NCBI GenBank assembly: GCA_046861655.1
Contig: JBHIAI010000001.1
Location: 43,027-107,026, forward strand
Length of the DNA: 64,000 nucleotides
Direction: 5' to 3'
From: Fidelibacterota bacterium
Lineage (GTDB): Bacteria; Fidelibacterota; Marinisomatia; Marinisomatales; S15-B10
Shown: positions 17,069 through 35,739 of the stretch, piece after piece
Layout: each line of letters begins with the position of its first letter
Position numbering within the stretch: the first letter of the stretch is position 1
The notes under the pieces: model-generated
Seen by the model: only the letters and a program-made list of their open reading frames with translations
Databases searched by the model: none
Told to the model about the DNA's origin: nothing
Program-made: the position numbers and the translations under genes

Positions 17069-17101
17069 TTCTCAGCCACTGACGTCCTAAACTCGGTCAC
17101 C

Positions 17102-18322: not shown

Positions 18323-18337
18323 GACCGGAGGTTTCTC

Positions 18338-18991
18338 ATGGCATTCAAGAAGCTCGAGTTCCACCCACTCCCGGAGGAAGAGATGGTTCGGCGATCCATC
18401 GAATACCTGCGGGCAATGAAAACAAGAAGAAGCGTGAGAGATTTTTCTGACAGGTCCGTTTCTTTTGAGGTCATAAAGAACATCGTAATGACGGCGGCCT
18501 CAGCCCCTTCAGGAGCCAACAAGCAACCGTGGACCTTCGTCATCGTGAAAGACCCCAGGATTAAGAAACGGATTCGCATAGCGGCCGAAAAGGAAGAAAA
18601 GGAGAATTACGAGCGCCGGTTTACTAACGAGTGGTTGGACGACCTGAACCTGTTTGGCACCGATTGGCACAAGGAGTTCCTGGAAATGGCGCCCTACCTT
18701 ATCGTCGTCTTTAAGCACAGTTTTGATGTGGTAAGCGGGGAGCATCGCAAGAACTACTATGTCAACGAATCCGTTGGCATTGCCGCCGGGTTCCTGTTGA
18801 CGGCGATCCACAATGCGGGACTCGTGGCCCTGACCCACACCCCGAGTCCCATGGGATTTCTGGCAGAAATCCTGAATAGACCGGCCAATGAAAAACCGTT
18901 CTTACTCATTCCGGTCGGTTTCCCAAGGGATGGTGCCGAGGTTCCCGTCCTGGATAAGAAAAGTTTCGAAGAAGTTGCCGTTGTTTGTTAA
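18338..18991 (+). CDS. Nitroreductase family, iodotyrosine-deiodinase-like
   Basis: RRSVRDFS, APSGANKQPW, AEKEEKENY, ALTHTPSPM. Confidence 0.82.
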   Translation: MAFKKLEFHPLPEEEMVRRSIEYLRAMKTRRSVRDFSDRSVSFEVIKNIVMTAASAPSGANKQPWTFVIVKDPRIKKRIRIAAEKEEKENYERRFTNEWLDDLNLFGTDWHKEFLEMAPYLIVVFKHSFDVVSGEHRKNYYVNESVGIAAGFLLTAIHNAGLVALTHTPSPMGFLAEILNRPANEKPFLLIPVGFPRDGAEVPVLDKKSFEEVAVVC

Positions 18992-19016
18992 AGGGAGGTC
19001 CATGGAGCTTGTTCAT

Positions 19017-19622
19017 TTATGGTTCCCCCGAAGACGTGGGCATCACAATACCCCCCTCACCTCCGAGTATTTCGCCGTTGCCCTGGAGAAACCACCGGCC
19101 AACCAGGGCCGCAGTCGCCGCATCCAGTTCATCTCCCGTCATGGTAGCCGTCAATCCCTCAACACCCATTCGTTTCAGTCCCCTGAGAAGCCCTTTGAGG
19201 TCCCGGTGCTGGCGGGGAAGACCCCACACGTCTTGAGCCGCACCGGGATAACACTCTACCGCCCTGTGCCCCATCCCCTCAATTCTCTCCTTGAGAGCTA
19301 ACCCACGTTCGGTCAACATTCGCATGGGGCCCAGGGTGATAGGAAAAAAGCGAATGCCCCGGCGCCGCAGCTCATGGTCACACTCTCGAAAATGCTCACC
19401 GGAGCGGTCGTGAATGGTCTTTCGTCCCTTGGGCAGACTCAAAGGGGCATCTATGGAAACCAGCTCTGGCCGTGCCCGGTCTATGGCGTTAAGGATCTCT
19501 TCATCGTCCGACGCCACCTCAGTCGTTGCCATCATACCGCGCAGGAGACATATCCCCGTTGGGCGGCTGGGCGAGCCTGCAAGATCTACCCCAAGAACGA
19601 CCATCGTTCTACCCTTTGACAC
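19017..19622 (-). CDS. DUF429 family protein (RNase H-like fold)
   Basis: GVDLAG, SIDAPLSLP, ECYP, DELDAATAA. Confidence 0.75.
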   Translation of the reverse strand: MSKGRTMVVLGVDLAGSPSRPTGICLLRGMMATTEVASDDEEILNAIDRARPELVSIDAPLSLPKGRKTIHDRSGEHFRECDHELRRRGIRFFPITLGPMRMLTERGLALKERIEGMGHRAVECYPGAAQDVWGLPRQHRDLKGLLRGLKRMGVEGLTATMTGDELDAATAALVGRWFLQGNGEILGGEGGIVMPTSSGEP

Positions 19623-20200
19623 TATTCAGGGTAGCCGTCGATGATTTCCTTTCGGCGGAAGCAGTCCATGGTATGGTCGTTCACCATGCCAGTCGCCTGC
19701 ATATGAGCATAGCAAATGGTGGAGCCCACGAACTTGAATCCACGCCGGCGAAGGTCTTCACTCAGGGCGTCAGACTCAGGGCTGGTTGCCCGGTAATCCT
19801 TCAACGTTCTGATTTCATTCACCATAGGTTTACCATTCACAAAACGCCAGATGTAGGCATCGAAGCTGCCAAATTCCTCCTGAACCTCGAGAAACTGTGT
19901 GGCGTTATGGATCGCGGCCGCCACTTTCAGGCGGTTGCGGATGATGCCGGGATTGTTCAGGAGCGAGTCAACCTTTGTCTGATCATAGCGGGCAACTTTT
20001 TGGGGATCAAACTGATCGAAGGCCTGTCGGTAGGTCTCCCGCTTTCGGAGCACCGTGTACCAGCTTAAGCCCGCCTGGGCCCCTTCCAGGGTAAGGAACT
20101 CGAAGATAAGTCGATCGTCGTGGACCGGGACCCCCCACTCGTTGTCGTGATAGTCGACGTAGTCTTGTTTGTCAGGATCGACCCAGGGACATCTCACCAT
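19622..20200 (-). CDS. tag: DNA-3-methyladenine glycosylase I
   Basis: YHDNEWG, LEGAQAGLSW, IIRNRLK, GMVNDH. Confidence 0.95.
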   Translation of the reverse strand: MVRCPWVDPDKQDYVDYHDNEWGVPVHDDRLIFEFLTLEGAQAGLSWYTVLRKRETYRQAFDQFDPQKVARYDQTKVDSLLNNPGIIRNRLKVAAAIHNATQFLEVQEEFGSFDAYIWRFVNGKPMVNEIRTLKDYRATSPESDALSEDLRRRGFKFVGSTICYAHMQATGMVNDHTMDCFRRKEIIDGYPE

Positions 20201-20353
20201 ACCACCTAAGTTTAGTGAAAAAAGCCCACCCTCGCAGGACTTTCTGCGTAAATTCCGGCGGCTGTGGTGGGACGGTAGCGAGCGAATCCCGCAAGTGTGC
20301 TGAAGAATCTACGGCAGGGATACCGACGAGTACAGTCAGGGGAGAACCAGAAG

Positions 20354-20992
20354 ATGAGCTGTTGTCAGTGTCAGGGTATTGAGACCTTTTTCAGTGATAA
20401 GATGGCCGCCCGGGAACTCAAGCGTTACCGGAAAAAGGGACCTTCCAAAACTACCCGGATGCTCATCGAGGCCCTTACCACGGAAGGGGTAGATGGGAAG
20501 ACGCTCCTTGACATCGGTGGAGGCGTGGGGGCCATACAGCATGAACTGATGACATCGGGGGTGTCCAAGGTCACGAACGTGGATGCGTCGGAGGCCTACA
20601 TTCAGGCTGCCAGTGAGGAGGCCCAGCGGCGAGGTCTCGCCGATCGTGTAACCTATCATCACGGAGATTTCGTGGACCTGGCCGCTCAGATGGAGAAAGC
20701 CGATCTGGTAACGTTGGACCGGGTAATCTGTTGTTACGATGATATGGAGACGCTAGTGGGTTTGTCGGCTGACCGGGCCCGGTGGCTGTACGCCCTGGTG
20801 TATCCCCGGGATCGCTGGCTGATGAAGAGTGCTCGTCCCGTAGCCAATCTGTTCTTCCGGATCAGGGGGAATCCGTTTCGCATATTCGTCCATCCCACCG
20901 AGGCGGTGGACGCCCGGGTTCGCAGCCGGGGCCTCCATCCCCATGTTTACCGCAAGACGTTTCTCTGGCAGGTCGTGGTCTACGTCCGCTGA
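20354..20992 (+). CDS. Class I SAM-dependent methyltransferase (BchM-like)
   Basis: LLDIGGGVG motif I; LDRVICCY. Confidence 0.82.
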   Translation: MSCCQCQGIETFFSDKMAARELKRYRKKGPSKTTRMLIEALTTEGVDGKTLLDIGGGVGAIQHELMTSGVSKVTNVDASEAYIQAASEEAQRRGLADRVTYHHGDFVDLAAQMEKADLVTLDRVICCYDDMETLVGLSADRARWLYALVYPRDRWLMKSARPVANLFFRIRGNPFRIFVHPTEAVDARVRSRGLHPHVYRKTFLWQVVVYVR

Positions 20993-21024
20993 GGGGGTTT
21001 TTCTAGAAGGGTCTTCTTTTCCCG

Positions 21025-21651
21025 CTAGTCCGTCTGTTTCTTCCTGGCGTAGTATCGCCGGACTTTGTCCCGGTTTCCGCAGTCCTTCATATCGCACCAT
21101 CGGCGTGACCGGTTTCGGCTCATGTCGAAAAAGAGCCACCCGCACCCCCGGTCGTCCGCGCACTCTCCCACCCTGTCGATCTTCCCGGAGGTAAGCAAGT
21201 CTGCGGCGGAATGGGCTATGGGCCACAATATGCGGTCAAGTCCAGTCCCTTCGTCAAACCACCTCCAGTCCAGGCCGCCCTTGGTTTGAGTGAGTCTCAG
21301 GTGGGGCAGGGCTTCCGATAGGGAAGCATTCAGAATGTTCAGGTCAGATTTTTCTGGTTCGCCACCAGCCGCGATTCTGGAGAACATGCGGTACATAGCC
21401 TCCCGCAGGGAAATGGCTTTTTCATAAACTTTCTTTGCCGTTGAAGGCCGTTTTTTCGCCTGCTGTAGAAGTCCTACCACCTCTTGATCTTCCAGAATAC
21501 CAACATCCCTGGCCCATGACACCAGATCCTCGTAGGTTTGAACGTGCTCCTCTGGATGGTCACTGCTGTGCCATTCCAGGGTGTTGGCGAAGTCCAGACA
21601 AATCCAGCTTTCCTGCGGAGAAAGGGATTCCTGATCGTTGGGGGCTCTCAT
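21025..21651 (-). CDS. ABATE / CGNR zinc-finger protein
   Basis: LDFANT; C..DRGCGWLFFDMSRNRSRRWCDMKDCGNR. Confidence 0.92.
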   Translation of the reverse strand: MRAPNDQESLSPQESWICLDFANTLEWHSSDHPEEHVQTYEDLVSWARDVGILEDQEVVGLLQQAKKRPSTAKKVYEKAISLREAMYRMFSRIAAGGEPEKSDLNILNASLSEALPHLRLTQTKGGLDWRWFDEGTGLDRILWPIAHSAADLLTSGKIDRVGECADDRGCGWLFFDMSRNRSRRWCDMKDCGNRDKVRRYYARKKQTD

Positions 21652-21691
21652 TGGGGTCGAGAGATTCCTTTTTCTTTCGAGGCGTTGCGTG

Positions 21692-21719
21692 TAACCATCA
21701 AAAAGTACTTGACAGGTTA
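21692..21719. promoter_or_regulatory. Inverted-repeat operator candidate between divergent CGNR and arginase genes
   Basis: TAACCATCAA-N7-TTGACAGGTTA, overlapping a TTGACA -35. Confidence 0.5.
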
Positions 21720-21866
21720 TATTCTTCTTTCATACATTCACACCAACAAGATGAATTTAGATAGTTATAGAAGCAGAGTCAAGGATATTCGGGATGTTCC
21801 TGAATCATCAGCCGTTTTCCCAGGTTGGATCAGGTCATCCAAGGGAATGAGACGGGACCCCGGCAA

Positions 21867-22775
21867 GTGAGAAGAATCGGACTTCTTGGCGTTCCCTCTA
21901 GTGCCGGGGCAAGACAGAAAGGACAGGAAAAGGGACCTCGGGCGCTCCGCAAGGCGTCGCTGCTTGAGAAGATGGGTACAACCGGATTGGACATCCATGA
22001 CTTTGGCGATCTGCCGGAGGTGTCCTACCGGCCCGATAGCGTGAATCCCAGGGGTCAGAATCTGGACCTGGTGGTATCGGTCGCGAAGAGCGTCTCAGAT
22101 AGGGTCAACGGGATAGTAAAAGAAGGTTTTTTCCCGGTGGTCATGGGAGGGGACTGCACCATCACCCTGGGAGTCCTGGATGGGGTAATCCCGAATAAGC
22201 CCGGCCTGGGCCTGATCTACTTTGATGGGGATGTTGATATAAACACGCCGGATACCACGGTGTCCGGGATTTTCGATGGCATGGGTCTTGCGCATATCAT
22301 CGGGAAAGGAACGGAGCCACTTACCCACTTGGGTACCCGGTATCCCCTCATGCCGGAAAAGAACGTACTACTTTTCGGCTACAATGAGGAGGCTGGGTTG
22401 ATGGACGCCTGGGAAAAGGAAACGTTGTCCACCTGTCAAATGATGGAGTACCCTGTGGAAAAAATTAGAGGTAAGCCCAGAGAGTCCGCCGGACGCGCGG
22501 CAGGTGAACTGGCAAGCAAGGTCGATTCCATTCTCCTTCATTTCGATGTAGATGTAATCGATGATGACGACTTTCCGGTGGCGGATGTCCCTCACCCTGG
22601 GGGCCTAACATTCGACGAAGCGATGGAGGCACTTTCTGTGTTCCTATCTTACCAGGAAGTTACGGGTCTGGTTATCACGGAATTCAACGCCAACCGGGAT
22701 GTTCAAGGTTTTCAAGCGGGCAGACTCGTGGAAGCGGTGGTCAATGCATTCGGAACGGGGACCGGGAACCTTTGA
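21867..22775 (+). CDS. Arginase family ureohydrolase
   Basis: GGDCTIT, YFDGDVD, LHFDVDV, PGGL, TEFN; start uncertain (21825 or 21867). Confidence 0.85.
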   Translation: MRRIGLLGVPSSAGARQKGQEKGPRALRKASLLEKMGTTGLDIHDFGDLPEVSYRPDSVNPRGQNLDLVVSVAKSVSDRVNGIVKEGFFPVVMGGDCTITLGVLDGVIPNKPGLGLIYFDGDVDINTPDTTVSGIFDGMGLAHIIGKGTEPLTHLGTRYPLMPEKNVLLFGYNEEAGLMDAWEKETLSTCQMMEYPVEKIRGKPRESAGRAAGELASKVDSILLHFDVDVIDDDDFPVADVPHPGGLTFDEAMEALSVFLSYQEVTGLVITEFNANRDVQGFQAGRLVEAVVNAFGTGTGNL

Positions 22776-22822
22776 CAACCAGATTTGTTTCTAGCTGTCC
22801 AATCGTTTAGGAAGGAGCTAAG

Positions 22823-22924
22823 ATGAAACAGATGAGAGTCAAATCAAGACAGGCCGGGGCCGACTGGAGGATCTTCCTTTTCCTCATAGTCGTGGAACTC
22901 AGTCCGTTCTTCTTGTTGGTGTAA
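22823..22924 (+). CDS. Putative 33-aa membrane peptide
   Basis: AAGGAG RBS; MKQMRVKSRQAGADWRIFLFLIVVELSPFFLLV. Confidence 0.3.
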   Translation: MKQMRVKSRQAGADWRIFLFLIVVELSPFFLLV

Positions 22925-23089
22925 AATGTCTGAAAGCAAAGGTTGAAGATCCGCCACTTTTGGGAAAGGATCGACTGGAGTATTTTCTTTCTAACTGGCA
23001 TCATACCGCAGTACTTGCCGGAACTGTCCCGGCGGCGTTACATGACAGAAGCCCGCCCGTTATGAAAACTTCTGAGGGGTATCTTTTTG

Positions 23090-25408
23090 TTAGTTCTTGC
23101 GAGTCAACAACTTGGCCACTACCTCGCGATCGGAGGTGGGTAGCTCACAGGCATAATTCTCACAGATGTACGCCGTCGCTTTTCCATCGAGCATTTCCAC
23201 GGTTTCAATAAAGGGAACATACGAGGCCAGTGTTTCCCTGGCCTTGCCGTCGTCCACAAGCAGAATAATCTTATTCGGAATAAAGTGGGAATGGACCTCT
23301 TTCAACAGCCCTTTCGTGTCGGGGTTATTGGCCTTGCCGGCGATGATGATCTGCTTCGGCTTTGACAGACTGAAATCGAGGGCCACGAGGAATTGTGGTA
23401 GTCCTTGGGGGGTGCTCAGTATCCTGCTCCCGAAATAGCGCAGGGATTGATCGGCCAGAGTCGCCCATTCCTGATTGTCTGTCATCTGAGACAGCCGCAG
23501 AAGGTTTAAGATGGCGATGGAGTTCCCCGTGGGTTCAGCGCCATCGTACCATTCCTTGGTGCGGATAAGGATGGATTCATCCGCCCCTGAAATGTCGTAG
23601 AACCCACCCTGATCCCTGTCATAAAACAGCTTATTCTGCTGTTCCGTAAGGTCCATAGCAGTTTGAAGCCAGCGGATGTCAAGGGAAGCTTCATACAGGT
23701 CCAGCAATCCCTGGGTAAAGAACGCATAATCCTCCAGATGGGCGTCGTATCTTGACTCCCCGTCGCGATATCGCCGGAGCAGCTTTTTGCCTTTCCTGTC
23801 GTACAGGTTGTCCAGGATAAACTGGGCGGACCGTTCGGCGGCGTTACGGTATCTTTCGTTGTCCAAAACCTGATACGCCCGGGCGAATGCGGAAATCATC
23901 AGTCCATTCCAGGAAACCAGTATCTTATCATCAAGGTGAGGTTTCGGTCGGGTTTCTCGCACCCGAAAAAGCGTTTCCCGGGCACGGGTCAGGATCGATT
24001 CCACATCGTCTACCGATAGGTCGAATTTTCTGGCTGTTTCTAGAGGTTCATGGGCTCTGAAGAGGATGTTCTCCCCTACGAACTCTTCGTGAGGATCGGA
24101 TTCCGCATTGCCCTTTTCTGTTACCCCATAATGGTAGGCGAACACCTCTGCTTGCGGCGGTAACAAAACCCCGTCAATTTCACTCTTCTTCCAGGTATAA
24201 AAAGCACCTTCTTCCTTTTCGTCCGGTTTTGTGGGGTCCACTGCGCTTTCCGCATCTTCCGCTGAATAGAATCCTCCGTCCGGGTGGGTCATGTTTCCTA
24301 AGACATAGGACAGGACATCGTGAACCACGTGGGCGTAGTATGGATCGTGGGTGATCTGGTGGGCTTCCAGGAAAGAAATGACCAGCTGGGCCTGGTCGTA
24401 GAGCATTTTTTCAAAATGGGGAACGCGCCAGCGGGCGTCAGTGGCATAGCGGTGGAAACCACCTCCCATATGATCGTACATGCCCCCGCGGGCCATTTGT
24501 TTCAGGGTCTCCAGCGACATATTCAAGGCTCTTTCATCGCCCGTTCGACTGTAGTATCGCAGCAAGAAGTTGAACGCCGCCGGCCTGGGGAACTTGGGCG
24601 CACTTCCGAATCCCGCAAACTGCGAATCATAGCTTTCCGAGAATGAGTTGAATCCGCGCTCTAATGCGGTGATACCCGCGTCGGTCGCCTCCACTTGCGG
24701 ATCGGCTACGTTGCTGAGATAATCAGCCATCTTCCGGCTGTTGGCTAGAATATCCTGGCGCTGATTTACCCAGGCCTCGTGAATGGCGGTGAGGATCGTG
24801 GGAAAGCCCGGACGGCCGTACCGGGGCTCAGGGGGGATGTAGGTGGCACCGTAAAAAGGCTGAAGATCGGGAGTCAGAAACATGGACATAGGCCACCCAC
24901 CGCTTCCCGTCATGGCCTGCAGTGCTGTCATGTACACCCGGTCTACATCGGGTCTTTCTTCGCGGTCCACTTTGATGCTCACCACGTAGCGGTTCATCAA
25001 GGCCGCAATGGAATCGTCCTCGAAAACCTCCCTTTCCATGACGTGGCACCAGTAACAGGTGGAATAACCTATCGATAGAAAGATGGGCTTGTCCTCTCTT
25101 CGAGCTTTCTCAAAAGCTTCTTCGCCCCACGGATACCAATCCACGGGATTGAACGCGTGCTGGAGTAGATACGGACTTTTCTCGTTGAGGAGGCGATTCG
25201 GCTTTTCGCCCTCGGCCAGCTTTCTGGCCACAAGCTCGCGGGCGGTGTTGGCTTTGATGGTTGTGTCTCGAACCGGGTGCTGGGTTGGGGCGACCTGCGA
25301 GGTTCCGGATTCCGTCACGGATCCCGTGGTAAGAGACGGGTCGTTCTTTTTCACGGTCATGGATACTTTCGTGATGACGAGTGCGATGACAGTCAGCAGA
25401 ACAGCCAA
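23090..25408 (-). CDS. Thioredoxin-domain protein (YyaL/SPATA20 family)
   Basis: [38 protein letters not shown]; start uncertain. Confidence 0.92.
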
Positions 25409-25777
25409 AAGGCGAACCCCAGGGATTGGAAGACGTGCTTTGATGGGATATTCAGAAAAGGGAGTTAATGGCGGCCGCTTCCCCCCGCCCCTCTTGTCAT
25501 GGACAGTTCCTTACTGATTGTTCTCAGAATCACGGTCTTTCTCACCGTTGCCCCCCGTCCTTATACGGGCATAGTTATGATTTCTAAACCAATTCTGCAA
25601 GTTCGTTTTGCTGGTCTGAAACTGGGCGAAAGACCAGATCCGGTTCTTCCCAGGCAATGACGCAACACTTTCTTATCCGCCCGAAAAAATGGCGGTGCGT
25701 CTCTTAACTGGATTCCCCTGAGGAAGGATTTGAAGGGCCGAAGACCCTAGGCGGAGAGGGTCATTCGACGGAAACGA

Positions 25778-25936
25778 TCACGAAAAGGCTGTGTCCCTGC
25801 GTTCGGTTCTGTCTGTTTGTTTCTTCCGTTCCGGTTGGCTTCTTTTTGGCCTCTTTCTCTTGCTGCGCTCAAACCGTTCCCGGATCTCCCGCCTCTTCTC
25901 ATCGGTCAGCCAGTGCTCACCAGACGGTCCGCTCAT
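25778..25936 (-). CDS. Small highly basic protein (52 aa), not in ORF track
   Basis: GAGGGG RBS then ATG; MSGPSGEHWLTDEKRREIRERFERSKRKRPKRSQPERKKQTDRTERRDTAFS. Confidence 0.45.
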   Translation of the reverse strand: MSGPSGEHWLTDEKRREIRERFERSKRKRPKRSQPERKKQTDRTERRDTAFS

Positions 25937-25949
25937 TCGGCAACCCCTC

Positions 25950-26402
25950 TTTCCTCAGCACCAGGCCGGCCGGTACCGGGCGACAAAAGCGCCTCCTGGC
26001 GGAGCCCTTGTGAGCCCACGTCATCCGGCGCTGGGTTTCCAGATAAGAGGTTTGAACCGGTGGAAGTAACGTTTGGGTATAGGAGAAAGCCTGTGGAGTA
26101 GAGGGGAAAGGCCCGTATAAGACCAATCCCCCCTGAAGTTCTTGGGTGATTGCGCGAACAAGCACTCCAAGGCATCCAAACGGACGCTTCAGGGGGGAAT
26201 TCCTTCCCGCCCAAGCGGGTTCCAGTTTGGATGCCTGAAAGTGCCGGTCTTCTCATCATCGGGAATGCTCGTTCGCGCACCTGCAATTTAGTCTACGGGT
26301 GTGTTCTTTTCAACATCTGGTCCGCTCACAAACAGTCTGGCTCACCCAGTCTGTGTCTGTCTGTGCTCGGATGAGCTCCTGGTCCTGTTTGTTCCATACA
26401 AA
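25950..26402 (-). ncRNA. Unidentified multi-domain structured RNA or leader
   Basis: Several nested stems whose mismatches are G-U only on the minus strand; lies downstream of a near-consensus promoter. Confidence 0.6.
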
Positions 26403-26408
26403 GTTCCA

Positions 26409-26437
26409 AATCTAACACTCAATCTACCGTTTGTCAA
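26409..26437 (-). promoter_or_regulatory. Near-consensus sigma70 promoter divergent from the S24 regulator
   Basis: Minus strand TTGACA-17-TAGATT with TGn extended -10; the -35 sits in the palindrome CCGTT-N4-AACGG. Confidence 0.75.
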
Positions 26438-26494
26438 CGGAATCCTGGTATATGGTACATAGTATTGAACATCATCCCCGCCTATATTTTGAAT

Positions 26495-27202
26495 ATGAAG
26501 AGAGTAACGGAGGCAGTTAGGGAGCTTTTGAGAACGCCCGAAGCGAGGTCATGGAATCAGGATCTCCTGGCGAAAAGAATTGGGGTTAGAAGAAACACGT
26601 TGTGGCGGTGGAGGCTGGGAAAGGGAAAGCCCCATGAGGGCAACTTGATCAGCCTGGCAGAGGTATTCAAGAAAGACATCATTTGGAACGATCAGCATAC
26701 GGAGATTGAGTTTGTTGAACGGACAGTAAGACAGGGAGAGGAGCTCCCCCCGTCCGTAGTGGATCGGTCACCGGGTGCCGCATGGGAGCGCCCCGATCTG
26801 GCGCCTCCGGGACTCCCCGTGGTAGCATGGGTAGCCGGGAGAGCTGAGGGTTTCTTCTCTGAAGATGGATATCCGGTGGGGAGGGGTGATGAGGAGGTCG
26901 CCAGACCCTACGATCTCGAGGATATGACGGCTTACGGCCTGAGAGTACCCGTAAAGAGGGGAGAGGCCCCGGAGCCCTTTCTGAGGCCGGGAGATAGGGT
27001 GATCTGTTCCCCGGCGGCGACCGTAAGGAACCGGGACATGGTGGTGGTCCGGATAAAAGATCAAGCCATTATCCTCAGGGAAATCCAGTTCGAAGGCGAC
27101 AGGATTAGACTTGTCAGCTACAATCCGGAATATGAAGACCTGGAATTGGACAAAGATGAATTAAAGTGGGTTCACAAGGTGGTCCATATCAAGAAGAAAT
27201 GA
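26495..27202 (+). CDS. XRE-HTH / peptidase S24-like (CI/LexA-type) regulator
   Basis: HTH QDLLAKRIGVRRNTLWRW; PVVAWVAG; AYGLRV..PGDRV; LVSYNPEY. Confidence 0.85.
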   Translation: MKRVTEAVRELLRTPEARSWNQDLLAKRIGVRRNTLWRWRLGKGKPHEGNLISLAEVFKKDIIWNDQHTEIEFVERTVRQGEELPPSVVDRSPGAAWERPDLAPPGLPVVAWVAGRAEGFFSEDGYPVGRGDEEVARPYDLEDMTAYGLRVPVKRGEAPEPFLRPGDRVICSPAATVRNRDMVVVRIKDQAIILREIQFEGDRIRLVSYNPEYEDLELDKDELKWVHKVVHIKKK

Positions 27203-27590
27203 GGGGGGCGAAGGCCGTTTTCGGAGGCAGATTGTACGGTTGGTCGCCAGCCTGATTCCGGATAGGGTACCGGAAGCGCCTACCACGATTGCGAGAGTGA
27301 AGGAAACGAACCCTGCCAGATGAATCGGAGGGAGGGTGTTCCAGTCAGCAACTTTCCTGACCGACCAGAAGATCACTGCCAGGCCAATGGCAGAAACCCC
27401 GAACTAGCGGAGGTTGAGGGTACCCGCCGCATCGGTTTCGGCTCCGAATGGGGACATGAAAACCGCAGGTGTGGTTTGGGCAGACAATACCGGTCTGTCC
27501 CGCGGCAGCGACGTACAGTCTTTTGTTGTTATGGTCGCGTTATAGGTGGCGTGCATACGAAAGGGTATGAAAGGGGAGTTTCTGGGGACT

Positions 27591-27800
27591 CTAGGATTCC
27601 TTCCGGGTAGACAGACCGAAAAGAGCGTACAGAGGGCAGAAGCTGACAATGCTGGTTACCAGGAACACTACAGCCAAAATACCCAGGATAATCGTCAGTA
27701 GTCCTGAAATGACCCCTGTGAAGTAAAGGGCCGCGACTAGGAGTACGAAGCCAAACCGGATTACGCGGTCAAGAGTCGACATATTCAGGTTCAATTTCAC
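27591..27800 (-). CDS. DUF2892/YgaP-like membrane protein
   Basis: NMSTLDRVIR...FCPLYALFGLST; AAGGAGG RBS before GTG. Confidence 0.88.
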   Translation of the reverse strand: MKLNLNMSTLDRVIRFGFVLLVAALYFTGVISGLLTIILGILAVVFLVTSIVSFCPLYALFGLSTRKES

Positions 27801-27956
27801 CCTACACCTCCTTGCATCGGGTTTATGCCCATTGTTGAATAAGAATCGCAAGAAGTGTAACGAGCCCAACACAAACGAGGCAGACCAGCGCAAACTTGAT
27901 GACCTTTGTTCGAGGGGTGTCCACCGGGCTCGCCTGCTCTTGCGCCTTCGTTACCC

Positions 27957-27986
27957 TTTAGACGCAAAGAGGTCCACAAGGTTACA
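27957..27986 (-). promoter_or_regulatory. ECF sigma promoter (copy upstream of DUF2892 gene)
   Basis: TGTAACCTT-N13-CGTCTAAA, same boxes and spacing as the copy at 28859-28888. Confidence 0.75.
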
Positions 27987-28002
27987 TGGAGCGGGACAGA
28001 TT

Positions 28003-28248
28003 CTAGACTTTCTTATCCCTTTCCAGGAACACCTGCTGTAATCGCTCATACAACCCTTGGCGGCGTCCGGCCGGGATTCTGCGCTCCCCCTGCTTACGAA
28101 AGAGCGATATGGTCCGCTGAGTAGTGTCCAGAACAACCCGGCAGTTTTGACAGGTGGCCAGGTGTTCCCGGGCTTCGGCGGTTAGTTCCTCATCCAGGTT
28201 GTGATCCATATAGTCTGACAGATACTGTATTAGGTCATCACATTCCAT
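28003..28248 (-). CDS. Zinc-finger (zf-HC2) anti-sigma factor
   Basis: HLATCQNC (HxxxCxxC); directly downstream of an ECF sigma. Confidence 0.88.
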   Translation of the reverse strand: MECDDLIQYLSDYMDHNLDEELTAEAREHLATCQNCRVVLDTTQRTISLFRKQGERRIPAGRRQGLYERLQQVFLERDKKV

Positions 28249-28264
28249 ATTAGGCCTCCAAAAC

Positions 28265-28843
28265 TCACACCATTTCGGCAAAATACGCGGCTAAGTGTTC
28301 ACGCAACAGAAGGCGGGCGCGATGCAAACGCACTTTCACCGCTCCAGGCGTAATGTTCAATATCTCCGCTGTCTCCCCAGTCGAAAGTTCCTCAATATCC
28401 CGAAGGATAAAGACCGTTCGCAGGGGTACCGGCAAGCCCGTAATGGCCTTGTCGAGTTGGGATTGTGTTTCGGATCTGTCCAGGAGCAATTCAGGAGCAG
28501 TACTCCAGTCGACGAATATGGCGGGTACGGTCAACACCCCGTCCTGTTTTGTCCCGGCCTCGCTAAGGTGGACAATAGGCTTCCGGTGCCGCAGTCTATC
28601 CACACTAAGGTTGTGGACGACGCGGTACAGCCATGTGCCTACCCGGGAAAGTCCTTTGAACTGATCCAATTTTTCGAAAAATCGAAGAAAGGCATCTTGT
28701 GCCACGTCTTCCGCCTCTTGCTCATCGCCCAAAATACCGAGGGCCAGACGGAACATTCGGTCGGAGTACATTTCGAACAGCTGGCGGAAGGCCTCCGCTG
28801 AACCGGCCCGCAGTGATGACAGCATCAATTCGTCATCGGCCAT
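28265..28843 (-). CDS. ECF sigma-70 factor
   Basis: AEDVAQDAF, TWLYRVVHN, GAVKVRLHRAR. Confidence 0.93.
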   Translation of the reverse strand: MADDELMLSSLRAGSAEAFRQLFEMYSDRMFRLALGILGDEQEAEDVAQDAFLRFFEKLDQFKGLSRVGTWLYRVVHNLSVDRLRHRKPIVHLSEAGTKQDGVLTVPAIFVDWSTAPELLLDRSETQSQLDKAITGLPVPLRTVFILRDIEELSTGETAEILNITPGAVKVRLHRARLLLREHLAAYFAEMV

Positions 28844-28858
28844 CAGAAACTCCAGCCG

Positions 28859-28888
28859 TTTAGACGAAGGGAGATCCGGAAGGTTACA
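28859..28888 (-). promoter_or_regulatory. ECF sigma promoter (autoregulatory copy)
   Basis: TGTAACCTT-N13-CGTCTAAA just upstream of the sigma gene. Confidence 0.75.
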
Positions 28889-29136
28889 ATCGCGCTTCTC
28901 ATCCGATCATGGACCCCAGGCCACCAAGCTTGAAATCATACCGCTCCAGTCTCGCCTGTATGGTAACAAGTCATCCCAACTTGGACTATCCGTCCGCAAG
29001 GGAAAATACACGGTTATCTGTAGTAATACATGGGACTTTATCTATGTCTTGCCGATAAATAGGTCAGGCCAAGTTGTTTTGTATCCTGTGAAGTCAGGTA
29101 CCGGTCCGGGTCATGAACCATCTGATCGGTACCCCG

Positions 29137-29574
29137 TTACTCGTCTGGCGAACGGTGGGCGGTGGCCTCCTCATCGACCCAATCTTCTTCTTCCCACATC
29201 ATACCCTTTCTGCCCGGCACTTTCCTGGTGGGTCCCGCCCTGTAGAATGAACACAATTTCGGTCCATAGCAAAAAGTCTCAAACCTATAGCGTCTTTGCT
29301 GAGGGTTCCACTGGTCAATGATCATGTCAACGGGCATACGACACCCCCAGACGCAGGCTTGACACTTCTTGGCATAGGTCCTTGCATTCAGACGCTGGTG
29401 CCCTCGATGTCGGTAGGTAGGCAGATCGGGGGGAACACCATACCATGGAGGGGGATCAGGTGGTTCAGCGCTGGATCGTTCTATGACGCTAAGCCGGATG
29501 CGGGGCTGAATTGAGGTGACTATGCCTTTCCAATCTACTTTCTCAGACATCACGTCATACAGATGGCGGTTCAT
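29137..29574 (-). CDS. Conserved hypothetical Cys-containing protein, possibly internally deleted
   Basis: CQACVWGCRMPV and FETFCYGPKLC motifs. Confidence 0.55.
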   Translation of the reverse strand: MNRHLYDVMSEKVDWKGIVTSIQPRIRLSVIERSSAEPPDPPPWYGVPPDLPTYRHRGHQRLNARTYAKKCQACVWGCRMPVDMIIDQWNPQQRRYRFETFCYGPKLCSFYRAGPTRKVPGRKGMMWEEEDWVDEEATAHRSPDE

Positions 29575-29640
29575 GTTGAACGGGCTTGAACGTCTTCCGG
29601 CACGATGGTATGTCCACTGAGCCGGCCCACTTGTCGAAAC

Positions 29641-30459
29641 CTAGATATTCTCAAGTAATACCGAAGCCGAATACGGAATGATTTCCCCTGTGTTTCTTTC
29701 TCTCCATATCTTCTCCGTGTGGGCCGCATTGTACACATGCCACTTCCCCGGGAATCGTTTGGCTATGGATCTCAGTATACCCATTTCTTTCTCTGAGAGA
29801 GGGTCGGCTGTGGTTTCGTCTGCTCTCATTATTTGACTCACTAACTCCCTGTAATTGTTGAGCTGAGGACCAAGCGGTAAAGCTGCATAGCTGCTTCCAG
29901 TCATGCTTCTGCCCAAATCCCTGAATGAGACCATGTCTGTGTACCATAGATACTTGGCTGTGAATAAGAATCTGTCATTTTCAACCAAAAGCCGCTTTTT
30001 CAGGATACTCTCGAGCTCCTTGATCACCAGTTTCAGCCGTGCCATTGAGAACTCTCTGTTTCCAGAGTATTCTGTTCCCAGGTCTTCACTCGTCAGTACG
30101 GTCCGAAGTGCCCTGTCCATGGAACGATTCTGAATTGAACTTCCTTCCCAGCGCTTGATGCTGGCGATTCCGACTGAAATCCTTGTTGCGAGATCGCGTT
30201 GACTCAATGATCTCTGTTTTCTCAACTCTCTTATTTCATCTCCGGTAAGCAGCCCCACTTTCTTTCGATAGACATTCGAAATGGTTTTTTGAATCGCGGT
30301 GGTTTGGTCTGTAGTACCTATCTCGATCCCACATCCGGGGCATTCGAAATACTCCGCCTCAATCGTAAAACTCTCGCCGCGGAACTCGATACTTTCGACC
30401 TTTGTGACCAAATTCATCTCACCGTGATCATTGGGGCAGAATTGATGTTGTTTTGTCAT
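29641..30459 (-). CDS. MqsA-like antitoxin (Zn finger + HTH) fused to DUF4065/Panacea domain
   Basis: CPND..CPGC; LLTGDEIRELRK HTH; KYLWYTD...GRSMTGSSYAALPLGP. Confidence 0.8.
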   Translation of the reverse strand: MTKQHQFCPNDHGEMNLVTKVESIEFRGESFTIEAEYFECPGCGIEIGTTDQTTAIQKTISNVYRKKVGLLTGDEIRELRKQRSLSQRDLATRISVGIASIKRWEGSSIQNRSMDRALRTVLTSEDLGTEYSGNREFSMARLKLVIKELESILKKRLLVENDRFLFTAKYLWYTDMVSFRDLGRSMTGSSYAALPLGPQLNNYRELVSQIMRADETTADPLSEKEMGILRSIAKRFPGKWHVYNAAHTEKIWRERNTGEIIPYSASVLLENI

Positions 30460-31025
30460 TCTCTGGCTGATCGTAGCTTTCCATCAAGCTCCTTGTAGCT
30501 AGGTCTCGGCAACCACGAAATTTACGGTATCAAATGATACCATACAACGAGTGATTTTGTGAAGGCTACCCGCGAGCCTGTCGCATCTGTTCCGTGCGAT
30601 CATCTCCGGTTCGAGAGGGCTTGAAAAAACCCTAATAAAGTGATTACGACCGACCAAATAATGTGATTACCCACACCCACACATCGACTGCTGTGCTTAT
30701 GTAAGGTGCTGCCACCTTTATTTTTTGTTGCAATATACGCCTTTTGTATGCTAACCTTGAAAAAGAACCAAGCGGGAGTGAGGTAGCGAAGCCACAGGTG
30801 AAAAACGAGACCCAACAGGGAGGAAACCATGAGAAACCAATGGGGACCTGACATGGATCACACCTACATACCCCAGGATATAGCCGTGCTGTGCGACAGG
30901 ATCGGGGGAGATGAAAATCGTTCTGGAAAAACTTTTCAGGCAGATTTTATAGTAAATTATGTGTATATTTAAGTATTATTAATTATATTTTCATTATATG
31001 AAACTCTTAATTCTTTAGGTTTGCC

Positions 31026-32270
31026 ATGATTGCCCATGTGGATATGGATTGTTTTTTCGTGGCCATCGAACGGTTCAAGGACCCCTCCCTGGTGGGGAAA
31101 GCCGTGGCCGTGGGGGGGGACCCTGAGAAAGGCCGGTCGGTGGTCACCTCGGCCTCGTACGAAGCCAGGCAGTACGGCATCCATTCGGCCATGCCCATGG
31201 CCGTGGCCATCAGGCGGTGCCCACACCTTGTGGTGGTGCCGGTGGATTTTGAGCGGTATGACCGGGTCCACCTGGAGGTCAAGAAGGTCCTGGAATCGTT
31301 CTCTCCGGCTGTGGACATGACCTCCATCGATGAAGGGTACGTGGACTTGACCGGCACCGGTCGGCTGTGGGGACCTCCCCTGAAGGCGGCAGAGCGTATC
31401 AAGTGGGCGGTACAGGAAGCCACGGGTCTCACCTGTACCGTGGGCCTTGCGAAGAACCGGCTGGTGGCCAAAATCGCCTCGGGCTGGGCCAAGCCCGATG
31501 GACTTCTTCATATTCCACCCCAGCAGGTGGAAAAACTTCTGGCTCCCCTGCCGGTGGAGGCCATCCCCGGAGTGGGCGAGAAAATGGCCGCTACCTTGCG
31601 GTCCCTGGGCCTGGAGAGGGTGGGACAGATCCAGGCGGTGGATGAATCCCTCATGGACGCCACCTTCGGAGCCTTCGGCCGGAGCCTGTGGCGAGCCGCC
31701 CGGGGAGAAGATCCGTCATGGGGGAGAGATCCCGCCAGCCGCATCCCGTCCGGGCGGGACAGGGGTGCGGGACACGGGACATCAAGGAAGTCCATCAGCA
31801 AAGAGATCACCTTCCCGGTGGATACCACCGACCGCAAGTACCTGGTCTCGGTTCTCCACTATCTTACGGAAAAAGTGTGCCGAAGCTTACGACAAAAAAG
31901 TAGGGCGGCCCGGACGGTGAACGTGAAACTGCGGTATGAAGATTTTGAAACCCGCCTTGCCTCGGCCACGTTTAACGAACCGGAAAACAGGGACGAGGCA
32001 ATCTTTTCATCGGCCTGGCGCTTGATGGAGAAGGCCATTACCCGGCGTGTGGGGATCCGCCTGGTGGGGGTTTCCCTGTCGAATCTCACCGGGTGTGTCC
32101 ATCAAACCGACCTGTTTGAGGAAACCGGATGGGTGAAAGGGTGGCAAAGGCTACAGGCGGTGGACCTGACCCGGGAGCGGTTTGGGTTTAATGCCGTCCT
32201 TTCCGGGGAAGCCATCTATCTTCTTGCCTACCCGCCTGACAGGCTCTTCCGACACCGGGGTTCGGTGTGA
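31026..32270 (+). CDS. dinB: DNA polymerase IV (Y family)
   Basis: HVDMDCFF, SYEARQYG, SIDEGY, AKIAS..KPDG. Confidence 0.93.
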   Translation: MIAHVDMDCFFVAIERFKDPSLVGKAVAVGGDPEKGRSVVTSASYEARQYGIHSAMPMAVAIRRCPHLVVVPVDFERYDRVHLEVKKVLESFSPAVDMTSIDEGYVDLTGTGRLWGPPLKAAERIKWAVQEATGLTCTVGLAKNRLVAKIASGWAKPDGLLHIPPQQVEKLLAPLPVEAIPGVGEKMAATLRSLGLERVGQIQAVDESLMDATFGAFGRSLWRAARGEDPSWGRDPASRIPSGRDRGAGHGTSRKSISKEITFPVDTTDRKYLVSVLHYLTEKVCRSLRQKSRAARTVNVKLRYEDFETRLASATFNEPENRDEAIFSSAWRLMEKAITRRVGIRLVGVSLSNLTGCVHQTDLFEETGWVKGWQRLQAVDLTRERFGFNAVLSGEAIYLLAYPPDRLFRHRGSV

Positions 32271-32390
32271 ATAGATAAATGTCTTGATGAAAGTCCGTCT
32301 GGAAGGCATATTCCCGCCGTAGCGGGACAGGTTGTATGGGTGGACATCATATGTGCGATTGTATAAAGGAGACAAAAGGAGGGAAGTCAC

Positions 32391-32795
32391 ATGCAGCGAG
32401 GAAGCGTAAACCGGGTCTTTATCGTGGGGTATCTAGGGTCGGATCCTGAAAGCCGGTACACCGCTGCGGGAACCGCCACCACGACATTCCGGGTGGCCAC
32501 CAATGAGTCCTGGCGAGACAGCGAGGGGGAGCTCCAGGAACATACCGAATGGCACCGCTGCGTGCTGTTTGGCAAAGCGGCCGAGATGGCGAAAGAATAC
32601 CTGAAGAAAGGCCGTCTGGTGGCCCTGGAGGGGCGTCTGAGAACCCGCACCTGGGAAGATAAAGAGGGTGTCCAACGGTCCACTACGGAAATCCGGGGGG
32701 ATACCTTTACCATGCTCGGCCGGAGAGGGGATACGGCGGAAGAAGCACCCGAAGAAGAGTCGGAACCGGCCAGCGATGACGATCTTCCGTTTTAA
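32391..32795 (+). CDS. ssb: Single-stranded DNA-binding protein
   Basis: VNRVFIVGYLG, TEWHRC, C-terminal DDDLPF. Confidence 0.95.
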   Translation: MQRGSVNRVFIVGYLGSDPESRYTAAGTATTTFRVATNESWRDSEGELQEHTEWHRCVLFGKAAEMAKEYLKKGRLVALEGRLRTRTWEDKEGVQRSTTEIRGDTFTMLGRRGDTAEEAPEEESEPASDDDLPF

Positions 32796-33145
32796 GGCGA
32801 CCCTTTTTAGAACGCGGCCTTAGCGGGGTGACGAGTTTCAGGCATCCCCGCGGCGATTGCCAGGACCAGACAGATCATTTTCAGCCGCAGGTTCTTTTGC
32901 AGCGCTTTTCTTCTGAAGAAAAGCGCGAGACATCTTTTTCATAGGGAGAACCGACACCCGCGTTTGTCTCGCCCAGTGACCTTCTCTTGTCGTCCTTCCT
33001 TTTCGAAAAGAAGGACCCCCGAAAAAGCACCGGGATCGTCAAACAGAAATCGATCTTATTCCTTGAGCTTCGCTGCGTCCAACCGAGTCTGGATCTTCCT
33101 GAGGCGACAAAAAAAAACAAAAAACCAACCTGATACATATCTGTT

Positions 33146-33916
33146 GTGCGCATCCGTCCCCTGTTCATCTGTAAGAGCCACTACACCTTCCTGGAAGGGA
33201 TTCACGCCGTTTCCGACCTTGTGGAATTCGCCCGGGACCGGGGTATAACCCCGCTGTGCCTGGCAGACAAAAACGGGCTGTACGGCGCCGTGGAATTCCT
33301 TACCGCCTGCCGGGACGCGGGGATTCACCCCATCCTGGGGACCGAACTGGTCCAGGGGCCCAGACAGGCAATCCTTCTGGCCAGGAATCACACAGGCTAC
33401 GAGGAAATGTCGGAGTGGGTGACCCGACTGCACCTGGACGGACTTCGCATCGATAAGGACCTTGAGGTAGACTCCCCCAATCTTCTGGTTCTGTGCCGGG
33501 ATCCGTTTCTCCTTCAGCGCTGGCTCAAACCGGGAAAAAACTCCCTGTTTCCAGCCCTGACTCTCACCAACCGGCAAGCCTGCCAGACGGTGCTGAACCT
33601 TCTCAGCCGGAGACCGTCCCGCCAGGGCGGGACCCGGATCCCCGCGGTGCCGGTGGTGGAGGTCAACCTTCTCTCCCCAAACGATACATCGCTGTACCGG
33701 ATGGTCAGCGCCATCCGCCTGGACTGTACGGTCCAGACCCTGCCCACGGAAGACCTGTACCCATGGGAAGAAGCCCTGGAAAGGCTTTCCCCTGAGATCG
33801 AGACCGATACCCCTCCCTATGACCCCCTTCTGTCTGGAACAGACCTCGCCCACCGATGCCAGCTGGAGCTTGACGTTAACAGCTATCATCTGCCAGCGTT
33901 CACACCAACAGAGTAG
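33146..33916 (+). CDS. dnaE2: Error-prone DNA polymerase III alpha, N-terminal PHP half
   Basis: SHYTFLEG, LADKNGLYGAVEF, GIHPILGTEL, LLARNHTGY; ends RCQLEL...HLPAF. Confidence 0.8.
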   Translation: MRIRPLFICKSHYTFLEGIHAVSDLVEFARDRGITPLCLADKNGLYGAVEFLTACRDAGIHPILGTELVQGPRQAILLARNHTGYEEMSEWVTRLHLDGLRIDKDLEVDSPNLLVLCRDPFLLQRWLKPGKNSLFPALTLTNRQACQTVLNLLSRRPSRQGGTRIPAVPVVEVNLLSPNDTSLYRMVSAIRLDCTVQTLPTEDLYPWEEALERLSPEIETDTPPYDPLLSGTDLAHRCQLELDVNSYHLPAFTPTE

Positions 33917-33979
33917 TCTGCAACCCCCCCCTGCAACCTTATTTATTAAAAAATATGGTGCCATATGTTTAAAAAACCC

Positions 33980-34008
33980 TTGAAATATTTGTTCATGACT
34001 TATAGAAT
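33980..34008 (+). promoter_or_regulatory. Sigma70 promoter of the lrp-like gene
   Basis: TTGAAA-17-TAGAAT ending 10 nt before ATG 34019. Confidence 0.65.
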
Positions 34009-34018
34009 GTAGAATTCC

Positions 34019-34480
34019 ATGGTAGATGAAAAGGACAGGATCATTCTGGATTTACTCCAGGATAGTGGCCGGAGGACTGCCAGGGAGGTGGCAGACCATG
34101 TGGATCTGTCGGTACCGGCGGTAGGGGAGCGGATCAAGAAACTGGTGGATGAAGGGATTATCGGTGAGTTCCGGGCGGTGGTGGATCCCAAGAAACTGGG
34201 GTACGATGTGACGGCGTTCATCCTGGTGGTGATGGCGTCCTCGGAACATTATGAGGATCTTGTGACGGAGGCGAGGGGGTCGGATGAGGTGCTGGAATGC
34301 CACTCCATCACGGGGGAGGGTTCCCACATCTTGAAAGTTCGAACCCACGATACCTCTTCCCTGGAGGGACTTTTGAGGGAGATTCAGTCCTGGCCCGGGG
34401 TGATTCGCACCCATACCATGGTGGTCATGTCCACCTTCAAGGAAACCACCCGGTTGAAACTTCATCAGAGGAAAAAATAA
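34019..34480 (+). CDS. Lrp/AsnC family regulator
   Basis: DEKDRIILDLLQ HTH; ECHSITG; GVIRTHT. Confidence 0.93.
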   Translation: MVDEKDRIILDLLQDSGRRTAREVADHVDLSVPAVGERIKKLVDEGIIGEFRAVVDPKKLGYDVTAFILVVMASSEHYEDLVTEARGSDEVLECHSITGEGSHILKVRTHDTSSLEGLLREIQSWPGVIRTHTMVVMSTFKETTRLKLHQRKK

Positions 34481-34533
34481 ACCACAGAGGACACAGAGTA
34501 GGATCTATAGTTTTTCTCTGCGCTTTCTGTGGT
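34481..34533. repeat. Intergenic inverted repeat
   Basis: ACCACAGAGGACACAGAG ... CTCTGCGCTTTCTGTGGT (14/18 complementary). Confidence 0.55.
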
Positions 34534-34555
34534 CCCATCTTCTCAAGTTAAAGTC

Positions 34556-35698: not shown

Positions 35699-35739
35699 AC
35701 TCGCAACGATAAAACCCACGAACGAAAAGGAGAACAGAC

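Follow-up and report, generated by a model that had tools for sequence, protein, structure and literature searches.

A 64,000-nucleotide stretch of DNA, here called the window, carries on its minus strand an element that comparison among relatives marks as a conserved, covarying RNA structure of an uncatalogued family, mostly found in the accessory DNA of Marinimicrobia. With three rounds of iterated covariance models and one motif pattern, the collection stands at 22 copies from 16 genomes and an additional half copy (G001). The RNA is a folded-back hairpin whose tip is predicted to take up its own 3' tail in two crossing helices, with a third partner of the tail that could mask the ribosome-binding site, an architecture that we have not found described. 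We consider it probable that this RNA is the 5' leader of the next gene, equipped with its own promoter, and that it is a cis-acting strand-exchange switch that limits the expression of the cargo of mobile islands. An earlier note on this DNA had proposed that the minus strand encodes an unrecognised structured RNA which has crossing helices and adopts two conformations, and this proposal is borne out by the absence of Rfam matches and by covariation. However, its size is about 155 nucleotides (26278 to about 26120) rather than the proposed 460 or so.

Distribution of the motif

A BLAST search over 61 relatives located the core in two genomes (G003 and G038) and only its 3' half in a third (G001). 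The motif pattern matched in nine of 401 genomes of the phylum, with one control match, and the last covariance model matched in 14 of 151 genomes of the class. Within the order of G261, this model matched in seven of 74 genomes, among them one with five copies (G374). One of the 22 copies (G378b) has lost its 5' end and promoter.

All copies except one are from the phylum Marinimicrobia (Candidatus Neomarinimicrobiota). The exceptional copy (G272:C309, L045) resides on a 3.3-kb contig labelled Candidatus Scalindua rubra and is the sole match in 92 genomes of that order. This contig is possibly misbinned, because its tRNA-Met is 92-94% identical to Marinimicrobia copies and only 85% identical to the other copy in its own genome. 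Over 301 genomes of the phylum of G272, a loosened pattern matched about as often as its control and is therefore uninformative.

None of the matches from six pattern scans of viral contigs (0, 0, 14, 111, 47 and 2) proved to be a member when checked with the covariance model or, for the 111, with a pairing script alone. Searches of phages and plasmids by BLAST returned only short chance matches. There are at least 119 loci from a metagenome scan whose pattern fits only some members, and none of the 100 that were checked with the first model matched it. Three of the 38 loci from a genome-wide pattern scan are real members. Many of the other pattern loci resemble a repeated hairpin element with a G-run, a C-run and inverted ends in Roseomonas genomes (L029, L030, L039, L047, L048, L053, L062) or a related hairpin in deltaproteobacterial MAGs (L043, L046, L050, L059). 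These hairpins look like REP or MITE elements and were set aside as unrelated.

Extent, strand and coding potential

The folding signal of the region is confined to positions 26124-26278, which have a z-score of -6.52 and are matched in stability by none of 200 shuffled sequences. The whole 451-nucleotide region scores -4.39. The 5' flank (26300-26400) is moderate, with a z-score of -2.45 and one of 200 shuffles as stable, and the 3' flank (25950-26100) gives 0.06 and 95 of 200. A cloverleaf, closed by 26025-33 with 25956-64, had been proposed within this flank, but the stretch from 25950 to 26040 folds at the level of chance (z-score -0.63, 47 of 200 shuffles). Likewise, the proposed 5' hairpin (26357-65 with 26327-35) is not conserved, and the 5' flank has no counterpart at the same position in G003, where the alignment score is 16 and the shuffled mean 16.65. 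Alignment of the 3' flank with G001 and G003 is poor and needs large gaps. Nevertheless, all six pairings listed in the earlier note, and the sequence TTGACA-17-TAGATT, are present where it had placed them. The coordinates of the features retained or added here are given in Table 1.

Table 1. Features of the leader RNA and its surroundings, in window positions
Feature	Positions	Strand	Remarks
Outer sigma70-like promoter TTGACA-17-TAGATT	26409..26437	-	Divergent from the S24 gene; outside the RNA family
Inner promoter TTGAAA-17-TAAATT	26285..26313	-	Predicted start at or adjoining 26278, the first paired base
Structured leader RNA core	26119..26278	-	About 155-160 nt; z-score -6.52; covariance-model match at 26122-26282 with 145.5 bits; covariation
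Basal helix P2, 5' strand	26262..26278	-	Pairs with 26152-26168; two-sided changes in 16/16 modelled pairs, 19 copies
One-sided 5' bulge	26237..26261	-	13-28 nt in members; often a small hairpin
Helix P3, 5' strand	26225..26236	-	Pairs with 26170-26181; 12 Watson-Crick pairs; two-sided changes in 9/11 pairs
Apex segment a	26208..26215	-	Partner is b locally, or tail segment a' across
Apical hairpin P5	26195..26208	-	5 bp, variable loop; incompatible with the full b:b' helix
Apex segment b (C-run)	26187..26198	-	Partner is tail segment b'; 12 Watson-Crick pairs here
Tail segment a'	26141..26148	-	Partner of apex segment a
Tail segment b' (G-run)	26127..26138	-	Partners: b; a' (weak hairpin); downstream anti-SD
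U-rich tract after b'	26119..26126	-	Weak in this copy; predicted site of pausing or release
Pyrimidine segment b'' (predicted anti-SD)	26100..26109	-	Forms 8 bp with b' or, alternatively, 7 bp with the SD (25944-25950)
Shine-Dalgarno-like AGAGGGG of the small ORF	25944..25950	-	From sequence
52-codon basic ORF	25778..25936	-	Predicted regulated gene; directly downstream; N-terminal part kept in G001 and G003
HTH_3 + Peptidase_S24 repressor-like gene	26465..27202	+	Divergent from the RNA

There are 42 G-U pairs and a single A-C mismatch in the helices across members, and the sense strand folds better than its complement in 11 of 11 cases. In the pairings listed for the window, the non-Watson-Crick pairs are G-U on the minus strand, as the earlier note had stated. 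A frame of 117 codons beginning with TTG crosses the RNA, and by eye the frames differ among homologues. Thus, the view that the region holds no convincing ORF stands within the RNA, but it missed the 52-codon ORF immediately downstream (25936-25778).

Secondary structure and covariation

The scaffold of the motif is composed of a basal helix, a one-sided 5' bulge of 13-28 nucleotides and an upper helix. P2 ranges from 12 to 28 base pairs (at most 20 in 20 of 21 copies), and P3 and P4 together from 6 to 18. The 3' end of the bulge can compete for the 3' strand of P2, and a competing repeat is visible by eye in several members.

Covariation, a check that the earlier note had called for, was evaluated in an alignment of 19 rows, which omits the 5'-decayed G378b, the half copy in G001 and the later-found G028 and G016. 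Over these rows, 92.7% of 817 cells are paired and two-sided changes occur at 33 of 44 pairs, a total that includes the crossing helix a:a'. The alignment was fitted to the nested scaffold, and the counts lean towards it for this reason. None of 500 shuffles scored as high, and slid registers reached 38-46%. The crossing helix a:a' is paired in 93.4% of cells, with two-sided changes at six of eight pairs (equalled in one of 500 shuffles) and in 18 cells (none of 500). This helix is absent from the alignment model, yet the motifs used in the searches were biased towards parts of its sequence, and the relatives are not independent. With this comparison as the basis, the scaffold and a:a' are shown to covary.

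Both of the crossing helices that had been predicted are present, but they are not equally informative. The b:b' helix is paired in 92.3% of cells and is mostly invariant, with two-sided changes at two of nine pairs, and therefore covariation says little about it. The local apex that excludes the crossed fold (a:b plus P5) is 91.8% paired, with two-sided changes at three of nine pairs. For P5, such changes are found at three of five pairs, four cells in total. By eye, a C-to-A change in b of G253 is answered in both P5 and b', and there is a similar case in G372. There are 13 invariant columns in the 19-row alignment, all inside predicted helices, whereas sequence in the loops and junctions changes freely. 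The idea of a conserved GNRA loop was dropped, as the P5 loops vary.

Promoters and the 5' end

The conserved promoter of this motif is the inner one (26313-26285), and not the TTGACA-17-TAGATT promoter that had been taken to define the RNA. In each of the first 11 members, the distance from the end of a -35/-10 pair to the first helix is 3-6 nucleotides, and in nine of these the score is matched by at most 2.5% of random positions within the same locus. In seven of nine members found later, the promoter lies 4-6 nucleotides ahead of the first helix, and of the other two it is weak in G372 and lost in G378b. A promoter is also seen by eye at the expected place in G028 and G016. The scoring weights were our own choice, and two of the 11 scores and two of the nine are common in the background (0.08-0.10). 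The RNA likely starts at 26278 from the inner promoter, because in the members the -10 box sits at a fixed short distance before the first helix.

A closing stem formed by 26288-26299 and 26112-26126 had also been proposed. The pairing is present, but its 5' arm overlaps the spacer and -10 box of the inner promoter. Transcripts that begin at the outer promoter are longer and could still contain this stem, which would there occlude both the U-rich tract and the loop in the hairpin formed by the tail and b''. By eye, G003 has a similar pairing (L002, 1527-1540 with 1700-1713), and it carries TTGACA-17-TATATT at the place that matches the outer promoter. Perhaps long transcripts under the control of the repressor might undergo different switching.

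Two further observations concern this promoter region. Between its two promoters, G003 has a frame with an internal stop (L002, 1104-1364) that by eye looks like a decayed Cro-type HTH gene, and a Pfam search with this frame gave no match. In G001:C236, the 5' end of the S24 gene is fused directly to the 3' half of the RNA (L005, 497-502), a junction that may reflect either a deletion of both promoters or a misassembly.

The 3' tail and a possible expression platform

Modelling suggests that the 3' tail has three mutually exclusive partners, which are the apex (giving a double pseudoknot ahead of the U-rich tract), the tail itself and the downstream anti-SD. As for the competition that had been predicted among helices, comparison supports apex versus tail versus downstream anti-SD and not the proposed choice between AAGACC and GACUAA. 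Stepwise folding gives first the closed apex, then the weak tail hairpin and then a hairpin of the tail with b'', a segment that is a pyrimidine-rich partial copy of the apex.

Directly after the G-run there is a U-rich tract, with at least five U in nine nucleotides in 18 of 20 members, at loci whose T fraction is 0.23-0.36. The tract is short and interrupted in several members, including the copy in the window (G000).

The cost of opening the Shine-Dalgarno (SD) sequence falls by at least 1.7 kcal/mol when the tail is added in 17 of 22 loci (8/12, 8/9 and 1/1 in successive sets). Six loci share one downstream gene and so are not independent. The median cost is 7.5 kcal/mol without the tail, as in the crossed state, and 3.75 with the tail free, as computed by hand. 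For ordinary genes of G000 (120 of 409), the cost is 3.9-4.3 kcal/mol, with a 90th percentile of 7.9-8.5. At the locus in the window, where the complementarity between b'' and the SD is read from sequence, the costs are 11.7 versus 7.5 kcal/mol. A large gain that at most 2/40 shuffled tails equal is seen in only seven of 21 loci tested, with G000 at 5/40, and the gain is lacking or reversed in five loci (G253, G001, G425, G374b, G401). A caveat for the predicted anti-SD is that the ability to pair with a G-run as well as with an SD is common to all pyrimidine tracts.

In 20 members, the energy of the crossed fold minus that of the nested fold has a median of -15.4 kcal/mol over the complete leader and of -20.2 at the U-rich tract, values that omit the loop penalty for the pseudoknot and the cost of winding two helices of 8-12 base pairs into a closed loop while polymerase holds the tail. 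Before such penalties, the crossed fold is favoured in 20 of 20 members. One might take this to mean that there is no switch. The crossed fold would then form in every case, serving as a pseudoknot terminator, fixed but leaky, that also protects the end and sets a low, constant output, and the alternative pairings would be folding intermediates or by-products of repeats. The mixed effects on the SD fit such a device, as does the fact that we found neither a trigger nor a conserved antisense promoter. A counter-promoter just 3' of b' is weak (p <0.1 in eight of 20), its -35 boxes are poor and the U-rich tract itself reads as an A-rich -10 box. However, the local apex and P5 keep compensating changes despite being excluded by the full crossed helix, and the long hairpin of the tail with downstream sequence beats shuffles (p <=0.05) in 12 of 21 loci, although G000 is not among them. 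We regard a fixed terminator as improbable.

Gene and island context

The predicted regulated gene in the window is the 52-codon ORF, which has no Pfam family and for which a protein search gave no candidate homologue. The divergent S24 gene is not a general partner of the RNA but accompanies it only in this family, where it is present in three of 15 genomes; the RNA and the 52-codon ORF occur in the same three.

In the 22 loci checked, an ORF with an SD on the same strand starts about 40-280 nucleotides past the tail, with the reservations that G016 has no clear start codon and that the starts in G044 and G425 were picked by eye. The downstream genes include a 157-amino-acid lipoprotein-like ORF, PLD-like, DUF1232 and Fib_succ_major genes, ORFs for secreted or membrane proteins and a basic peptide. 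No protein is common to all loci, and the downstream genes have no common function. The gene for the 157-amino-acid protein, which has no Pfam family and for which a label of PEGA found no confirmation, forms a unit with the RNA at six loci with different flanks in three genomes: G374 (L312, L384, L385), G456 (L377, L382) and G378 (L383).

Many copies have hallmarks of mobile DNA nearby. There are two tyrosine-integrase ORFs, an HTH_17 gene and a tRNA-Leu in G261, an integrase and an HTH_17 gene in G052, a serine recombinase at a tRNA-Asn in G038 and an integrase remnant at a tRNA-Met in G272. In G253 an HTH_17 gene lies beside a DUF6361/helicase cluster, and two of the copies in G374 (a and b) are near integrases together with Fic, HigB or type I restriction genes. 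The copies in G044, G425 and G028 are near tRNA genes, and that in G401 adjoins RadC. Thus, the copies are mostly near integrases, tRNA genes or defence genes, which is to say in accessory DNA, and an island context is established for some of them rather than for every copy. No integrase is present among the ORFs checked at 16000-36000 of the window.

Several other features of these loci deserve mention. A non-coding stretch of 60-160 nucleotides with 73-87% identity is common to the regions upstream of the RNA in G261, G456a and G378b (L310, L377, L383), and is perhaps the end of an island. About 300 nucleotides upstream of the RNA, G425 and G378a have in common a stretch resembling the 3' half of a tRNA. 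The window also carries an MqsA/SocA-like antitoxin gene (29641-30459), followed at 31026-33916 by a Y-family polymerase, an ORF that by eye is SSB-like and a stand-alone PHP gene. Positions 25515-25730 and 25948-26165 are linked by several short inverted repeats that fall close to a single diagonal, one of them a perfect 11-mer (25560-70 with 26111-21), and small hairpins with GNRA-type loops are found on the plus strand at 25600-25800.

The gene context bears on two further readings of this RNA. One is an orphan riboswitch, in which the folded-back junction would be the aptamer and would bind a small molecule or an ion. Strand exchange is a common riboswitch platform, and a 5' leader position with a promoter of its own fits the riboswitch scheme (PMC10907184, in part); the promoter, the U-rich tract and the anti-SD provide a computationally predicted expression platform. 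However, all 13 invariant columns fall in predicted helices, so that the loops and junctions offer no invariant unpaired pocket, and the downstream genes do not form a coherent set. A small-molecule aptamer or a ribozyme is unlikely because there are no invariant unpaired bases and because the downstream genes are unrelated, and we hold a riboswitch in particular to be quite improbable.

The other reading is that the element is a ribozyme, a second 6S-type decoy for polymerase, or a hairpin that acts as a signal in single-stranded DNA, for example in recombination or priming. Its long helices, its compact double pseudoknot and its proximity to integrases and tRNA attachment sites are compatible with these roles. 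However, there is no Rfam match to a self-cleaving ribozyme and no invariant unpaired core, and the 6S model (RF00013) does not match at the RNA, where the bulge is one-sided on the 5' strand and not a two-sided central bubble. Moreover, a separate full-length 6S candidate is located on another contig of the same genome (G000:C66:9248-9432, minus strand, L006), with 45.4 bits against an Rfam cut-off of 46.4. The bias towards G-U pairs, together with the fixed distance to the promoter, indicates RNA rather than DNA, and the recombinases are not of a common type (serine in G038, tyrosine in others). We judge any of these roles to be very improbable.

A proposed strand-exchange mechanism

Our model for the switch begins with the long hairpin, which would fold first with its apex closed on itself through a:b and P5. 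As the tail carrying a' and b' emerges, the basal and upper helices would fold back at the bulge, as fits their similar lengths, and the tail would invade the apex to form a:a' and b:b'. In this OFF state, the G:C-rich b:b' helix would end right before the U-rich tract, and thus might cause polymerase to pause or to release the RNA. A pseudoknot is able to stabilise a polymerase pause (PMC8632103, in part). In RNA that has been read through, formation of b:b' would leave b'' free to mask the ribosome-binding site. In the ON state, polymerase would pass before invasion occurs, such that b'' captures the tail as a hairpin and the ribosome-binding site is exposed. The OFF state is the predicted ground state, and the ON state is likely a kinetic or triggered one. 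The scaffold, the crossing helix and the leader position come from comparison among members, and from them we infer transcription, termination, masking and switching. We commit to control by folding kinetics or by a macromolecule rather than by a small ligand.

Perhaps, instead, what matters is a stable short RNA, made by termination or trimming, that like IsrK and P4 CI would work in trans. Its targets would be copies of the same leader, either nascent or incoming, and it would provide feedback or immunity between related islands. Both ends of such an RNA would be paired and protected, and the five copies in G374 differ in the sequence of a:a'. IsrK, in its terminated short form, acts in trans to remodel its own long transcript, and CI has the downstream seqC as its pairing partner (PMC4825925, in part). 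However, the predicted transcript contains no upstream target, and the apex pairs with the 200 nucleotides upstream better than shuffles (p <0.05) in only two of 21 loci. Furthermore, a, b, a' and b' are all occupied in the crossed state, and the near-invariant b:b' would give poor specificity between islands. We give this possibility only a small chance.

A more elaborate version of the cis-acting switch is a portable cassette of promoter plus leader that operates by four-way strand exchange between two hairpins. As a topological lock, a 3' end could wind fully into the apex only once released, the resulting nuclease-resistant short RNA would reset sibling leaders in trans, and the variable a:a' helix would be an address for the separate control of up to five islands per cell. 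We present this version as speculation that is rather unlikely to hold as a whole.

If the strand-exchange model is true, the islands of this phylum, which is widespread and uncultured, have a cassette that works without protein and holds the expression of captured cargo low or delays it, the cargo in question being nuclease-like, membrane and secreted proteins. The natural variants with compensating changes make the folding race among pseudoknot, hairpin and polymerase open to direct test.

Comparison with known RNA families and systems

The suggested Infernal search against Rfam was run and gave no known family, including 6S. With Rfam 15 (4227 families), the window yields one tRNA and nothing else, positions 25400-26500 give two chance matches at E <=10, and 20 member loci and eight diverse loci (the latter at E <=1) yield only tRNAs. 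The C4 and isrK models are unmatched in all of these scans of the window, the region and the member loci. The LOOT model (RF03000) has no match above its cut-off at member loci in five genomes, and its one weak match (22.1 bits) is on a different contig of G052. Motifs of a group II intron start, group I introns, the hammerhead and hairpin ribozymes, C/D boxes, integron attC sites and T-boxes were considered and dropped, as they are not conserved across members. A literature search of listings and the starts of abstracts gave no description of the motif, and a term search of the main texts of PMC5737381 and 10.64898/2026.10.21.760802, whose supplements could hold the motif, finds no mention of the phylum.

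The P4 CI and P1 c4 immunity RNAs had been suggested as analogues, and the analogy holds for the logic of a two-part apex with a two-part downstream target but not for membership. Here, there is a seqC-like complementary target downstream in the form of a:a' and b:b', but there is no match to C4, no cloverleaf, no processing leader and no seqA-type target upstream within the predicted transcript, whose start falls on the first helix. Also, cargo genes follow the RNA rather than kil, ant or Bro genes. What the systems share is that a segment of the RNA has a complementary target further along the same transcript, by which it stops, or in our RNA is predicted to stop, the genes that follow, and that they are found on integrative elements with integrase and excisionase-type genes (PMC10111431, PMC4825925, both in part). 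Relatives of P4 CI and seqA are present in satellites (PMC10111431, in part).

The IncI-alpha repZ leader also has a hairpin whose tip joins sequence close to the ribosome-binding site in a long-range pseudoknot and so decides translation. There, the pseudoknot activates translation, requires a leader peptide and is blocked by antisense Inc RNA (PMC4705826, in part). In our RNA, the pseudoknot is predicted to be OFF, there is no conserved leader peptide or convincing antisense promoter, the downstream genes are not rep and the reading frames across the RNA differ between members. The type I toxin mRNA AapA1 passes through successive metastable co-transcriptional folds that mask the ribosome-binding site, and a long-range G:C-rich helix can serve as a terminator (PMC5416894, in part). 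In contrast, the whole fold of our motif precedes the ORF. The ORFs that follow are of various kinds, most of them other than small toxins, and we found no antitoxin RNA.

Another likeness is to the isrK-orf45-anrP leader of the Salmonella prophage Gifsy-1, a transcript of a mobile element in which a 5' structure pairs downstream, a stable silent fold is opposed to a less stable active one, and a terminated short form is possible and acts in trans (PMC4825925, in part). Our RNA differs in that isrK does not match, in that the tail is predicted to turn expression OFF by entering the apex of a long hairpin as a double pseudoknot, and in that there is no conserved leader ORF. Thus, by analogy the motif appears to resemble IsrK and P4 CI partly in logic while failing membership in any of the compared systems, and we consider it a new RNA family of a functional kind that is already known rather than a new kind of molecule.
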